Source: Candidatus Freyarchaeum deiterrae (GTDB lineage: Archaea; Asgardarchaeota; Jordiarchaeia; Jordiarchaeales; Jordiarchaeaceae). From it: DNA of 64,000 bases. A program made the translations under genes and the position numbers. Positions within the stretch are counted from its first letter, which is position 1; each line of letters starts with the position of its first letter. The DNA is taken from NCBI GenBank assembly GCA_037305845.1, contig CP147778.1, forward strand, positions 3,392,001 to 3,456,000, in the 5' to 3' direction. Below the pieces are notes generated by a model. That model was not told the origin of the DNA. It was given only the letters and a program-made list of their open reading frames with translations, and did not search any database. This document shows, in pieces, positions 21,076 through 27,659 of the stretch.

Positions 21076-21693
21076 TTAGGCGATGTCTTTTTCTTTTAGT
21101 ATCTGCTTGCAGTTTGGACAGTATTTCTTCTCTTTTTTCCCTTTCGGCAGGTGGTTTCTGTGGCTCAGGGCTCCGCAGTAGGGGCACTTAACATGCAGGT
21201 CACCTAGAACAATGTCCTTGTTGCACACTGAGCACCGTGCTCTGGTCTCTCCGCAGTGTGGGCAGTATTCCGCGTTTTCGGGAATCTCGGAGCCGCAGAA
21301 CAAGCACTCTAATTTTGTCTTTATGTAACCAGAACCCTTGCTTATTGTTCTCGCGATATCTGTTGCGAGAGGTCTATACCTCTTAAAATGTTTATACCCG
21401 AAGTAAACCCGCAGACCGAGCAGAAAGTAAATCATAATAAAAATAGTACCTCCCAGAACAATCAGAACAGTAGCCAAGTTATCCGGTTGCATAGCCATGT
21501 AACCGAAAATAACTAGGGATTGAACAAAGGCATCTGGTCCAAATAAACTGCCAATGTATGGCGTAGCCACTTCAATAATACCAGTGTTAAACGAAAATTG
21601 TAGGCGTATGATAAAGATTATAGGAAATGCTACAGAAAGAAGAATGATTGCCATACCTACTACTCTTATGACTATCTTCTCTCTATCCTCCAT
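21076..21693 (-). CDS. Membrane protein with C-terminal zinc ribbon and degenerate RING-like finger
   Basis: Two clear hydrophobic segments; CLFCG...YCPHCG; CSVC-x12-CPYC-x4-H-x2-H-x10-CPNC with LEWIKVKG replaced by PKGKKEKK. Confidence 0.8.
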   Translation of the reverse strand: MEDREKIVIRVVGMAIILLSVAFPIIFIIRLQFSFNTGIIEVATPYIGSLFGPDAFVQSLVIFGYMAMQPDNLATVLIVLGGTIFIMIYFLLGLRVYFGYKHFKRYRPLATDIARTISKGSGYIKTKLECLFCGSEIPENAEYCPHCGETRARCSVCNKDIVLGDLHVKCPYCGALSHRNHLPKGKKEKKYCPNCKQILKEKDIA

Positions 21694-21900
21694 GTTTGCT
21701 CCCCGCTTTTGCAGCTTGGCTAATATTTGGTTAGGTTAACGTTATTAGCAATCCTCACGTTTTTCAACACTTTTTATAAGTATGTTATATTTTTTGTAAT
21801 CGATATTCAGTTTAAATGAAAGTATTTAGAAACTTATTAATAATTTTAATGTTTGAGGAAATATATCCGGCTTGGGTCTTATTCCAGATACTACCAGCTG
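21694..21900 (-). promoter_or_regulatory. Shared ~200-bp upstream element, copy A
   Basis: tttcctcaaaca-x-taaa-x-TTATTAATAA, TATA and aaatatta...ggggagcaaacATG are shared with 23962-24170 and 44590-44793. Confidence 0.65.
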
Positions 21901-21987
21901 TCAGCTAGAGTAATGTGTTTAATCCATTTACTTAAAAAAATTAAAATAAGGGAGAAAAAATTTTGTTCGTTTAAAGAAGAGGAAGTT

Positions 21988-23961
21988 CTAAGCGAGGTCT
22001 TCTTCTTTTAGTCTTTGCCTGCAGTTTGGGCAGTATCCCTTCACTTTTATCCACTCGAGTAGGTGGTCTCTGTGGCTCAAGGCTCCGCAGTAGGGACATT
22101 TAGTATACTGTTCCCCTGAAACGATGTCCATCTGGCACACCGGGCACTTGAGTCTGACTCCCCCGCAGTTGGGGCAGTGCTTCGCGTCCCCCGAAATCTC
22201 GGAGCCGCAGAACAGGCAACACCTCTTCCCGAGAGCGGGAGCGCATGAATCCAACCGACCCAGCTTCTTATCAATGGAAGCCAGCTTGGCGCTGTACTTG
22301 GTGTAAATCTCCGTGTACTCCCCGTGGGTAAGCTTTCCAGCATTAAAACGGGCGTTCGCCTCATCCATGAGGTCTCTGAGAGCCGCCCTCCGCGCCTCAA
22401 GTTCCCCCACCCGAACCTTGGTCTTGGGGAGCTTAACGCGCTTGGAAAAAATTAACGGCTGCGTTTCATAGTGAGGCATCGCCCCCCTAACCTCGGGCAC
22501 CCCCTCCTGCTCAGGGGCCTCCTCTCCAACTCTCCCAGAAGCAGCCGCCCGCTCATACGTGGTTGGACGCCGGGGAGCAGTTCCCCCATATCTGGTTCGG
22601 GCTTCCACCTCAGGAACCCGTTCTTCCCTACTGAGGTACTTCCTCCACTCATAAATGGCGTAGGCTGAGCCTGCCAATACGATCGTAAGCAATAAAACGG
22701 TTCCCCGACTAACTAAAGAATTTTGTGAATTCTGCAGAGAGTTGTAAAAGTTATACAACAGAAAAATAAACAAAGCTAGACCGTTTATAATGACTGTGTT
22801 ATTCTCAAGAGTGTTATTGTATGAATTAGAATCTATGGCGAAGCCGCTGACACAGAACCAGAAGTCTAAGGTCAAAGTGTTATCAGTAATCGTATTATAG
22901 GAGCTATAGTATAATCTGATGCCTATGCTGTTGTTGTTTGCGGTGTTACCAGAAAGAGTGTTGTACGAACTATTGTACAGTTGGAAGCCTAGCGAGTATA
23001 TGGCCGAAGTATACTCGCCGTTGTTGTTTGCGGTGTTACCCGAAAGGGTGCTGTATGAACTATCCCGCAGGTAGAAGTCAACGATACTGTGATTTGCAGT
23101 ATTGCCCGAAAGATTATTATTATTCGAGCTGGATCCTAGAAAGAAGCCTCCATTGACGTTGTTTGTGGCATTGTTTCCAGTAAGAGTATTATTGCTCGAA
23201 TTATATAGGTAGAAGCCAGCAATGGGGTTATTTGTTGCGGTGTTACCAGAAAGAGTGTTTAATGTGCTTTGGTCCATTAGGAAGCCGTTATTGTTGCTGT
23301 TTAGAGTGTTATTTGTAAAATTATTGTTAAAGCTATTAAACAGGCATAAGCCTTCGCGCCAGTTGTTGTTTGCGATGTTGTTTGAAAGATTGTTGTACGA
23401 GCAGCTGTCTAGGTAGAAACCGTAGTTGCCGTTGTTGTTTACAGTGTTTCCCGAAAGAGTGTTGTACGTGCCATTGTAAATGTAAAAGCCGTTGAACCTA
23501 TTCCAGACGGGGAAAGGTGTGCCGTTGTTGTTTGCGGTATTATTTGTAAGATTGTTGTTCGAGCAATTGTACAGGAAGAAGCCGCAGTCCCACCCTGTGA
23601 CTGTGACGTTAAAGATGGTTACATTTCTTCTGCCATTCAAAGAAAAGCCGTACCCACAATATAAAGTTCCAGGGCCTTGCACAGTGTATCCATTTCCGTC
23701 TATAACTATGTTGTCCGCTACTACATTTATTGTTTCAGAATAGTTTTGACTAAATGTAGTGTTTCCGTTGATGTCTAACTTTGGTCGAATGACCGTATTG
23801 GGATTCTGGGAGAAGCCCTGGATGTATGCGTTGATGAACGGGGCTGAGTTTTGGTTTTGGTTCTGGATTGAGGTGACCGCTGCGGTTGTTGTTGCTGTGA
23901 GGAGAATGGCTGCTATGATTAGTATTTTTAGGGTTTTCTTCCTTATCTTTACGCCTTTCAT
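21988..23961 (-). CDS. Receptor-like membrane protein: signal, NosD/CASH beta-helix ectodomain, TM, helical hairpin, zinc ribbon, RING-like finger
   Basis: NIVIDGNG cap; repeated GFYLxxSSxNTLSGNTANNN; TM GTVLLLTIVLAGSAYAIY; CPVC-x12-CPYC-x4-HRDHLLEWIKVKGYCPNCR. Confidence 0.85.
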   Translation of the reverse strand: MKGVKIRKKTLKILIIAAILLTATTTAAVTSIQNQNQNSAPFINAYIQGFSQNPNTVIRPKLDINGNTTFSQNYSETINVVADNIVIDGNGYTVQGPGTLYCGYGFSLNGRRNVTIFNVTVTGWDCGFFLYNCSNNNLTNNTANNNGTPFPVWNRFNGFYIYNGTYNTLSGNTVNNNGNYGFYLDSCSYNNLSNNIANNNWREGLCLFNSFNNNFTNNTLNSNNNGFLMDQSTLNTLSGNTATNNPIAGFYLYNSSNNTLTGNNATNNVNGGFFLGSSSNNNNLSGNTANHSIVDFYLRDSSYSTLSGNTANNNGEYTSAIYSLGFQLYNSSYNTLSGNTANNNSIGIRLYYSSYNTITDNTLTLDFWFCVSGFAIDSNSYNNTLENNTVIINGLALFIFLLYNFYNSLQNSQNSLVSRGTVLLLTIVLAGSAYAIYEWRKYLSREERVPEVEARTRYGGTAPRRPTTYERAAASGRVGEEAPEQEGVPEVRGAMPHYETQPLIFSKRVKLPKTKVRVGELEARRAALRDLMDEANARFNAGKLTHGEYTEIYTKYSAKLASIDKKLGRLDSCAPALGKRCCLFCGSEISGDAKHCPNCGGVRLKCPVCQMDIVSGEQYTKCPYCGALSHRDHLLEWIKVKGYCPNCRQRLKEEDLA

Positions 23962-26278: not shown

Positions 26279-26704
26279 TTGCCTCATAGACCTTCGGGAG
26301 TGACAGTTCTAGGCACTTTTATGATTATTTTAGGAGTTATCACCATTATTTGTGAATTTCTTTTTGTGTGGCCGGGTTTGCCTTATATACCCGTTATTAT
26401 TTATGAAATTCCTGTTTTAGTGGGGGAGAATTTACAATCCAATATTCCGATATTTATTCTCGGTAGTACGCTTTTGGCCGGTGCAGTGGGTCTGCTCAGC
26501 ATGACTGGTTGGGGCTACTATCTAGCTTTGACTTCTTCAATTATTCTGATTGCAGACTCTGCCATTTCATTCTTACTCTTTATCGCATCACATTTCTTGA
26601 TCCCTATACTTAGCATAATATTTCCATGTGGCCTGATTCTTGGAATAGTAACTCTCGCTTACCTTCTCAGTAAAGCAAAGTACGAGTACCCCATAGAATC
26701 CTAA
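26279..26704 (+). CDS. RPxG-family membrane protein 1 (no RING)
   Basis: RPSGVTVLG...GLLSMTGWGYYLAL...YLLSKAKYEYPIES; TTG start after a GGAGG RBS. Confidence 0.8.
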   Translation: MPHRPSGVTVLGTFMIILGVITIICEFLFVWPGLPYIPVIIYEIPVLVGENLQSNIPIFILGSTLLAGAVGLLSMTGWGYYLALTSSIILIADSAISFLLFIASHFLIPILSIIFPCGLILGIVTLAYLLSKAKYEYPIES

Positions 26705-26921
26705 TTAGCAGGTACTCAAAATAGTTTCTTTAATTTGTTACTGATTAGCAGGGTTTCTGAAAGATTTCTGTTTGTGTTACAGCGTTTCCCTCTTTCGGTG
26801 TAAGTATTGACCTTTTATTTTTTGTGTATTTAATGCCTTTTTAGAAAATTATTTAAGAGATAAAATAAAATAAGAAGGAAGAAAGAACCCTCTTATGAGG
26901 ATGAATATGGGAGGAATGGAT

Positions 26922-27659
26922 TTGAGTTATAGACCTTCCGGAGTAGTAGTTATAGGGGTTTTCATGATTATTTTCGCAGTTTTAAACATTTTTTGGGCAA
27001 TTTTAATGATGCCTTTATCGGGTACAAGTTTGATTACGCTTTTTTCACCATTTACTTTAGGGGGATTATTGTCCTTTGGTTTGATGCTTACTACTAGTGT
27101 GATGCTCGTGGTTGGTGCGACTGGTCTGTTAAGCATGGCGCGTTGGGGCTACTATACCGGTTTAGCTGCTTCAATTGTTCTGATTGTATCCGCTGTTTTC
27201 TCTTTCTTTGTTGGGTTCGGATTCTTCTTAATTTCTATTGGTGGCTTAATTCTCGGAATAATAACTCTTACCTATCTCCTTACTGATGTAAAGTACGAGT
27301 ACCCAATAGACTTAAGGAGGGAGTACCCTGCAAGGTATGAATACCCCGAAAGGAGGAGGACGATGCCTGCCGCCAAGATTGTCAGCGTGCCAGAACCCAT
27401 TCCCGTCGCCATAAAGCCAAAACCAGATTGCCTGTACTGCGGCACCGAGATCCCCGAGGACGCCGAATTCTGCCCCCACTGCGGAGAGGCCAGGGTGAGA
27501 TGCCCAGTATGCAGCAAGGACATCGTTTCAGGAGACCGATTTGTAAAGTGCCCCTACTGCGGAGCCCTGAACCACAGAGAACACCTGCTAGAATGGATAA
27601 AGGTGAAAGGATACTGCCCAAATTGTAAGCGGAAATTAAAAGAAACAGACATCGCTTAA
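26922..27659 (+). CDS. RPxG-family membrane protein 2 with cytoplasmic zinc ribbon and RING-like finger
   Basis: RPSGVVVIG...MARWGYY...DVKYEYP, then CLYCG...CPVC-x12-CPYC-x4-HREHLLEWIKVKGYCPNCK. TTG at 26922 follows GGAGG (ORF open from 26895). Confidence 0.85.
   Translation: MSYRPSGVVVIGVFMIIFAVLNIFWAILMMPLSGTSLITLFSPFTLGGLLSFGLMLTTSVMLVVGATGLLSMARWGYYTGLAASIVLIVSAVFSFFVGFGFFLISIGGLILGIITLTYLLTDVKYEYPIDLRREYPARYEYPERRRTMPAAKIVSVPEPIPVAIKPKPDCLYCGTEIPEDAEFCPHCGEARVRCPVCSKDIVSGDRFVKCPYCGALNHREHLLEWIKVKGYCPNCKRKLKETDIA

Follow-up and report, generated by a model that had tools for sequence, protein, structure and literature searches.

Asgard archaea are among the closest prokaryotic relatives of eukaryotes and possess ubiquitin, ESCRT-I and a soluble operon-encoded E3 ligase, yet what selects and tags their membrane cargo is an open question (PMC9192718; bioRxiv 10.1101/2023.07.25.550441). 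The closest described counterpart of the element analysed here is srfp, a small RING protein known from Caldiarchaeum subterraneum and from Asgard ubiquitin operons, whose E3 activity has been demonstrated in vitro for Caldiarchaeum and for a Helarchaeon (PMC5654768; bioRxiv 10.1101/2023.07.25.550441); the Caldiarchaeum protein carries one extra cysteine, and I30, W58 and R69 are needed (PMC5654768). Here we analyse a 64-kb window of Candidatus Freyarchaeum, a complete Freyarchaeia genome from wetland soil (PMC11291895) consisting of one contig (C1, 3,576,204 bp), in which three membrane proteins (W1, W2 and W3) end in the same cassette of a zinc ribbon followed by a RING. The cassette shares with srfp the extra-cysteine RING, the hydrophobe, the Trp and the W-x6-C-P-x-C spacing; whereas srfp is soluble, 80-100 aa long, encoded beside ubiquitin and equipped with an N-terminal substrate loop, the cassette has the ribbon for the loop, is joined to membrane proteins whose genes lie far from the operon, and occurs in several copies. 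Below, P and L numbers denote homologs and loci, and f numbers Asgard families.

Each of the three cassettes occupies 231 nt at the C-terminus of its carrier and encodes 76 aa and a stop codon, laid out as a zinc ribbon (C-x2-C-x10-C-x2-C) and a RING (C-x2-C-x12-C-x2-C-x4-H-x2-H-x3-W-x6-C-P-x-C-[KR]). An earlier inspection of this DNA (here called the sequence-only reading) had described the intervals, the pattern and similar 3' flanks, and in all three respects it was correct, the similarity continuing for ~30-40 nt beyond the stop codons (262 nt at 73%; 287 nt at 76%). Pairwise identities are 75-79% for nucleotides and 63-72% for amino acids; because synonymous divergence is 0.7-1.2 and dN/dS 0.15-0.33, the copies are old and under purifying selection. 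Their tails contain 11-16 lysines. The N-terminal parts of the three proteins have no BLASTP similarity to each other (best E 0.62) and cannot be aligned. The genome-wide census of fusions that the sequence-only reading had proposed gave nine copies of ribbon plus RING, seven of them on transmembrane (TM) proteins, and two decayed copies. The decayed cassettes, with stops or frameshifts, lie at C1:125100-125320 and C1:312760-313010 and illustrate birth and death of the module. The ribbon half is found alone on many membrane proteins, and ribbon-only C-terminal tails are common in the genome; one example in the window (53793-55907, minus strand) combines, as judged by eye, a subtilisin-like ectodomain with a TM helix and a ribbon-only cytoplasmic tail.

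The AlphaFold2 model of the cassette (predicted local distance difference test, pLDDT, 91) has a core of a beta-hairpin and a helix, with which RING and U-box structures (Rad18, PCGF5-RING1B, EL5) align in Foldseek at a root-mean-square deviation (rmsd) of 1.2-1.7 A over ~50 residues. The top 50 matches in VIA-align are RING, U-box and ZnF-RING domains throughout, with a middling best Z of 7.1. No PHD structure is present in the Foldseek or VIA top-50 lists, which does not exclude a PHD; the cassette Trp stands seven residues before ligand 7, as in RINGs, rather than the two that mark a PHD. With eight ligands in RING spacing, the hairpin, the helix and the C-P-x-C loop, the modelled cassette falls in the RING finger superfamily, as the sequence-only reading had proposed against a PHD or tandem ribbons, and probably binds zinc in a cross-brace. 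The comparison with RING-H2 ligases drawn there has to be qualified: the ligand set is C4-H-H-C2 and not the canonical C3H2C3, with Cys at ligand 4 and His at ligand 6 in 138/145 homologs. In Pfam the top scores on the cassettes are for DZR and zinc-ribbon models; copy 2 matches zf-RING_2 (E 6e-6), and copy 3 is above the cut-off for Prok-RING_1 (PF14446; Burroughs et al. 2011; 37.1 bits vs 29.1), over profile positions 5-33 of 54 only.

The cassette and the small RING of the ubiquitin operon belong to the same C4-H-H-C2 subfamily. The genome encodes two Ub-E2-E1 operons as well as ESCRT-I, ESCRT-II and ESCRT-III components, including a UEV-Vps23 with Vps28-like and ESCRT-II-like neighbours, so that the machinery presumed by the sequence-only reading is all in place. 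The E1, E2 and ubiquitin genes of the operons span C1:1985076-1987318 and C1:1909910-1911982, and UEV-Vps23 lies at C1:1894957-1895757. In one operon a small RING gene abuts ubiquitin; its product is 46-48% identical to the three cassettes and has in common with them the motif H-x2-H-L-L-E-W-x-K-x-K-G-x-C-P-x-C, which recurs in genes of this type that adjoin E2 in 17 loci. The srfp core (C-x2-C-x(11-12)-C-P-x-C-x4-H-x2-[HC]-x3-W-x6-C-P-x-C) is complete in copies 2 and 3, and copy 1 is without the Trp helix. At the E2-binding hydrophobe, Trp, Pro and basic linchpin W2 has V/W/P/R and W3 V/W/P/K, the equivalents of I30, W58 and R69 thus being V, W and R or K, and W1 has V/G/P/K. The operon E2 retains its P-Y and P-S loops. 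Co-folded with this E2 the cassette scored 0.40 against 0.01 for the best control, with contacts 100% consistent between runs and a partner pLDDT of at least 86, which weakly supports E2 binding. The co-fold mark is reached by 58/80 solved and 2/110 mismatched pairs, and at scores of 0.60 or below by only seven solved pairs and both mismatches; RING-E2 is moreover a textbook pair that may have passed by likeness. A RING tree of 52 columns did not resolve whether the fused cassettes derive from srfp once or several times.

The operon small RING lies at C1:1987309-1987569 (L004:1728-1988, minus strand). Operon small RINGs have an N-terminal strand that, as we presume, resembles the cullin-binding strand of Rbx1 and Apc11. 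This strand, R-F-x-I-x-x-V-x-x-I-G-x-W-x-W before Cys1, is conserved among them, L058-L075 included, and corresponds to the N-loop of Lu et al. The second Ub-E2-E1 operon (C1:1908209-1914608; L026, L025, L022) is, as judged by eye, flanked by a JAB/MPN-like gene and another small RING, by a possible E2/RWD-like plus RING fusion and by an HExxH peptidase-like plus RING fusion, and has an ArsA/GET3-like ATPase gene directly upstream.

A profile search for the cassette gave 1,133 representatives at E <1e-10; the following statistics are drawn from the top profile matches, 145 of which have a full RING. The ribbon is present in 132 of these, the RING ends within 25 aa of the C-terminus in 139, and 97 have an upstream TM helix. 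V or I before Cys2 is found in 139, Trp in 126 (Trp or Tyr in 135) and Pro in all 145; tandem double cassettes occur in 16. The N-termini fall into 67 BLAST clusters, 52 with TM helices, an overcount of families given single linkage at E 1e-5 and the inclusion of some fragments, and include beta-helix, DUF2341, HEAT, TPR, LRR and PCI (PCI/winged-helix) domains; the shuffling onto diverse proteins claimed by the sequence-only reading is thereby borne out well beyond the window. Searches for related loci with a single query returned true relatives only from Borrarchaeum, and the non-Asgard matches cover the ribbon only. In several f27 genomes an architecture of ectodomain, TM helix, helical region and cassette is conserved. 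Four proteins of ~1000 aa (L042, L044, L048, L054), with ectodomain, TM helix, long helical cytoplasmic region and terminal ribbon plus RING, have the Asgard layout nearest to that in which GATOR2 and IFT-A subunits end (solenoid-ZnF-RING). A separate, larger expansion is seen in the complete 2.8-Mb Asgard genome G012 (L161-L188), with 29 cassette-profile matches, many of them RING-only and on TM proteins.

Two patterns in the protein sequences predict that the cassette lies on the cytoplasmic side of the membrane and not, as would have spoken against the sequence-only reading, outside. W2 has 21 N-x-S/T sequons before its last TM helix and none in the 216-aa tail, and five paralogs have 191 in their ectodomains against one in their tails, a count partly inflated by Asn-rich repeats; in addition, basic residues follow the last TM helix, in agreement with the positive-inside rule, in 85 of the 97 TM homologs. 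A short extra hydrophobic stretch ahead of the last TM helix in the W2 family may be read as membrane-proximal rather than spanning. Across 251 Asgard genomes the cassette query matches 168 and ubiquitin 172, and the family patterns match: f6, f7 (0/60), f11, f17 and f26 have neither, and in f19 ubiquitin is found in one of seven genomes, whose ubiquitin contig also encodes a RING. No cassette turned up when five f7 genomes (95-99% complete) were searched with the profile. Family f7 is probably Thorarchaeia, reported to be without ubiquitin (PMC9192718).

The clearest graft is that of W3. The genome has 16 RPxG paralogs, of which 15 are short-tailed and end mostly at a KYE[FY]-like motif, and W3 alone runs on, into a 123-aa tail that holds the cassette; since only 1/16 RPxG proteins and 3/18 beta-helix surface proteins bear it, the cassette is a real graft. 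RPxG proteins have no convincing Pfam family. At positions 50977-58737 the window holds seven or more RPxG multi-pass paralogs in tandem, and their upstream regions are repeated as well.

W1 and W2 are related in another way. Their upstream regions are 72% identical over 192 nt (E 1e-17), and the same type of region precedes the RING-less beta-helix sibling of W2; because these promoter regions are homologous, W1 and W2 are not independent grafts. The sequence-only reading, in treating the three N-termini as unrelated, was thus right for the proteins and not for the W1 and W2 genes. From these alignments W1 and W2 are most plausibly kin whose interiors were exchanged or have diverged, and it is W3 that is clearly an independent graft.

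In W1 the E2-binding helix is degenerate. The sequence-only reading had noticed the missing Trp, and the loss proves to be larger: LLEWIKV has become LPKGKKE through five single-base substitutions that span the helix. A compensating frameshift as the origin was ruled out (identity 0.63 in frame vs 0.42-0.46 shifted). The same changes are present in P0007, an RPxG ortholog of W3 from another sample (83% nt identity to W3), and in the RING tree the W1 and P0007 RINGs are sisters (support 100/91). The W1 homologs P0001-P0003 carry two tandem cassettes each, with Trp; since these are Trp-containing tandems and the W3 ortholog P0007 is Trp-less, the pairing of cassettes with carriers is incongruent between samples. 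The substituted helix makes the W1 pseudo-RING an unlikely E2 binder and its cassette a predicted inactive ligase, and its retention suggests a role as decoy or partner, or a structural role of the fold.

W2 contains an element missing from the sequence-only reading, a helical hairpin between TM helix and cassette (residues 520-570) that is computed to be homologous to the steadiness box of ESCRT-I. It resembles the C-terminus of the genome's own UEV-Vps23 (E 0.0017), and in a search of 34,650 open reading frames with a hidden Markov model (HMM) built solely from 30 Asgard UEV-Vps23 boxes, a 1690-aa paralog (E 9e-10) and W2 (E 9.7e-8) rank right after Vps23, and a reversed control gave no hits. 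Six more representatives and three loci in family f16 also match the HMM. Among 11 family members, Vps23_core is the commonest Pfam match to the hairpin (five members, E 1.5e-4); SHOCT was rejected as the weaker identity (three members, E 0.017). Pfam gave no match to the W2 hairpin alone, and a PDB sequence search with the hairpin alignment returned no ESCRT-I chain among its matches. The W2 box is modelled as a two-helix hairpin; its three best matches in VIA are all to the yeast Vps23 headpiece (Z 9.7-9.8, rmsd 1.8-2.7 A over 60-61 residues), although hairpins of no relation score level with them at Z 9.4. The unit of box, ribbon and RING is itself shuffled onto RPxG, HEAT and winged-helix proteins, and the order ectodomain, TM helix, box and cassette is conserved over several f16 genomes. 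Docking of W2 on ESCRT-I would fit this homology. In vitro, the steadiness box of Vps23 is a substrate for ubiquitylation by an Asgard RING E3 (bioRxiv 10.1101/2023.07.25.550441). Two related observations concern other proteins: C1:2740796-2741584 (L024) encodes a membrane protein that is anchored at its N-terminus, has at its C-terminus a hairpin resembling the steadiness box (E 0.033) and lacks a RING, and P0036, L047 and L049 are tandem PCI/winged-helix proteins (weak E3_UFM1_ligase match) that terminate with the cassette, P0036 having a steadiness box in addition. Table 1 lists the features of the window.

Table 1. Cassettes, their carriers and related features, in positions of the 64-kb window.
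Feature	Position	Strand	Remarks
Cassette copy 1	21076..21306	-	12/12 zinc ligands retained, E2-binding helix replaced
Cassette copy 2	21988..22218	-	Intact RING: Val before Cys2, Trp 22051-22053, C-P-x-C, Arg linchpin
Cassette copy 3	27429..27659	+	Ribbon 27429-27482, RING 27501-27626, Trp 27594-27596, Lys linchpin
W1	21076..21693	-	205 aa, two TM helices (residues 11-29, 76-94), C-terminal zinc ribbon and pseudo-RING
Degenerate E2-binding helix of W1	21130..21147	-	PKGKKE replacing LEWIKV, point substitutions
Upstream (promoter-side) region of W1	21694..21930	-	Homologous to those of W2 and of the RING-less sibling
W2	21988..23961	-	657-aa surface protein: N-terminal hydrophobic anchor/signal, beta-helix, TM, linker, steadiness box, ribbon, RING
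ESCRT-I steadiness-box-like helical hairpin of W2	22252..22404	-	Residues 520-570, HMM E 9.7e-8
C-proximal TM helix of W2	22642..22698	-	Residues ~422-440, followed by basic residues
Beta-helix (NosD-like) ectodomain of W2	22777..23784	-	Approximate limits; Pfam Beta_helix E 5e-37; 21 N-x-S/T sequons
Upstream region of W2	23962..24200	-	Homologous to that of W1
RING-less RPxG 4-TM paralog	26279..26704	+	Ends at KYEY motif
W3	26895..27659	+	254-aa RPxG 4-TM protein; linker and cassette beyond family-terminal KYE[FY] motif (27288-27302)
Second RING-less RPxG paralog	27932..28369	+	
RING-less beta-helix sibling of W2	44794..46962	+	42% identity over N-terminal 400 aa, 36-aa tail

Combining the computed fold, subfamily, motif conservation, shuffling, co-occurrence with ubiquitin and steadiness-box homology, we suggest that the carriers are probably RING E3 ligases tethered to the membrane. 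They would mark themselves, their neighbours or ESCRT-I for ubiquitin-ESCRT sorting or proteasomal degradation, and W2 would be docked on ESCRT-I. In this model the cassette would be a portable RING E3 output domain of the srfp subfamily, with the zinc ribbon at the place of srfp's short N-terminal substrate loop: (i) at the cytoplasmic end of a membrane protein it would bind E2~ubiquitin, using for this the Val/Ile that precedes Cys2, the Trp of the helix and the C-P-x-C loop, possibly in response to an outside ligand, (ii) the acceptor of the ubiquitin would be the tail of the cassette protein itself, a membrane protein nearby or ESCRT-I, and (iii) the tagged protein would be passed to UEV-Vps23/ESCRT or to the proteasome. 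The steadiness box of W2 would dock the ligase on the ESCRT-I headpiece or serve as ubiquitin acceptor itself, and W1 would be a pseudo-ligase acting as decoy or inactive partner. The plug-in domain of the sequence-only reading survives in this model; its diverse sensors do so less well, there being hardly any ectodomain in W1 and W3, and a common system of the three remains a conjecture. One copy is predicted to be inactive. A bolder version, which we regard as possible though doubtful, is that Asgard archaea have a large, lineage-expanded set of receptor-like E3 ligases in which the W2 type would be a one-chain tag-and-sort device, the ectodomain or TM helix picking cargo, the RING ubiquitylating it and the box filling Vps37's slot in the ESCRT-I headpiece (Asgard archaea have no clear Vps37; PMC9192718), with Trp-less copies as inactive partners and the ZnF-RING cassette as perhaps the source of the GATOR2/SEA and IFT-A C-termini.

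Several points weigh against ligase function. The cassette genes are remote from the genes for ubiquitin (~1.4 Mb to the operons) and for ESCRT, and the substrate loop of srfp is missing. The co-occurrence with ubiquitin is partly circular, in that the query also finds the operon srfp; it reflects few independent losses, and kin are not independent. The linchpin position does not discriminate, because the operon RING of this genome has Ser there and K/R is found in only 78/145 homologs; of the E2-binding surface and linchpin invoked by the sequence-only reading, the V/W/P residues and a basic residue are present in W2 and W3, and the argument from the linchpin is weak. Finally, the Trp-less copy retains every zinc ligand and recurs in another sample, so that the RING fold may serve an E2-independent job. 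This retained pseudo-RING is the best argument for what we consider the main rival explanation, namely that ribbon and RING form a structural brace with little or no ligase activity, in which different membrane proteins would be held together, as a complex or a lattice resembling a coat, by contacts of RING with RING or of ZnF with RING. Foldseek indeed matches the whole module (79 residues) best to the ZnF-RING domains at the C-termini of GATOR2/SEA and IFT-A subunits (TM-score up to 0.69, rmsd 3.0 A), the RINGs of SEA are structural and heterodimerise (PMC9646525), and tandem double cassettes would suit a brace. We nevertheless judge it unlikely: because the rmsd to GATOR2/SEA is 5.5-7.5 A, only the domain order is common to both, the sequence is far nearer the operon RING than GATOR2/SEA and IFT-A (identity 18-26%), most homologs retain the E2-contacting Trp, and co-loss with ubiquitin is unexpected for a pure scaffold.

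Less probable still is a sorting tag or regulator that binds E2 or E2~Ub and brings about only mono- or self-ubiquitylation of its carrier, as a turnover signal, or titrates E2, with neither trans substrates nor receptor-like signalling. Such a role would suit the dearth of ectodomain in W1 and W3, the lysines of the tails, the ordinary standing of the carriers in large surface families that are mostly tail-less (15/16 RPxG, 15/18 beta-helix) and the ease of gain and loss that the two decayed copies indicate; it overlaps with the membrane-tethered ligase and differs in substrate scope alone, and it fits poorly with the architectures conserved over several genomes in f16 and f27 and with the many homologs that add domains of the kind expected in substrate adaptors (HEAT, TPR, LRR or PCI/winged-helix). 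That the cassette is a generic archaeal zinc-binding tail of the double zinc ribbon type, resembling a RING and unrelated to ubiquitin, would agree with the best Pfam scores, the common ribbon-only tails and the non-canonical ligand pattern, and is very improbable in view of the RING fold, the kinship to the operon RING, the conserved Trp and the co-loss with ubiquitin. We therefore favor membrane-tethered ligases. If they are active, ubiquitin control of surface proteins and diversification of E3s by domain shuffling were already in place in the archaeal relatives of eukaryotes; if they are inactive, the family would point to an archaeal root for structural ZnF-RING braces. Its members are named, small and testable candidates for tagging membrane cargo in Asgard archaea, and the version with the steadiness box suggests how the cell surface might be coupled directly and physically to ubiquitin and ESCRT-I.

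Among the neighbouring genes of the window are two that lie between the cassette genes at 24327-26006 and that, by motif, encode a metallophosphoesterase-like protein and a LigB-like dioxygenase. The former is conserved in 5/5 congeneric metagenome-assembled genomes, where cassette genes were not found; a genus-level DNA search of these five fragmented assemblies gave no syntenic copy of the three cassette genes, which does not show their absence. Positions 29835-30404 (minus strand) encode a 189-aa protein, longin/roadblock-like by eye, with a C-terminal cysteine cluster and no Pfam match.

The RING itself is of a known kind. In the literature searched, from which figures and most subscription papers were outside, we found no description of an Asgard membrane-anchored RING family or of the TM-box-ribbon-RING architecture. 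Bacterial members of Prok-RING_1 carry TM helices and would be a prokaryotic precedent for TM-RINGs. Asgard multidomain proteins with a steadiness box have been suggested to attach to ESCRT-I and to act there as analogues of ESCRT-0 (Makarova et al., PMC11188069); the text of that paper, Figure 6B aside, gives fusions of the box with adaptin, longin, TPR, Ig-like and PCI domains and no architecture of TM helix and RING. GATOR2/SEA (MIOS, WDR24, WDR59) and IFT-A subunits resemble the cassette in having a zinc finger directly before a RING at the extreme C-terminus, and differ in being soluble scaffolds of beta-propellers and alpha-solenoids, an architecture that is absent from the TM proteins W1, W2 and W3. 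The design of ectodomain, TM helix and cytoplasmic RING is the same as in the eukaryotic TM-RINGs (RNF43/ZNRF3, the PA-TM-RINGs GRAIL/RNF13, plant ATL/EL5 and MARCH), and the RINGs of EL5, RNF13 and RNF24 are among the structural matches of the cassette. The cassette proteins, in contrast, have no PA domain and no other ectodomain in common with these ligases, their ligands are C4-H-H-C2 and not C3H2C3 or C4HC3, and they possess an extra ribbon and sometimes a steadiness box. The likeness to the eukaryotic TM-RING ligases is best taken as an analogy rather than as orthology.

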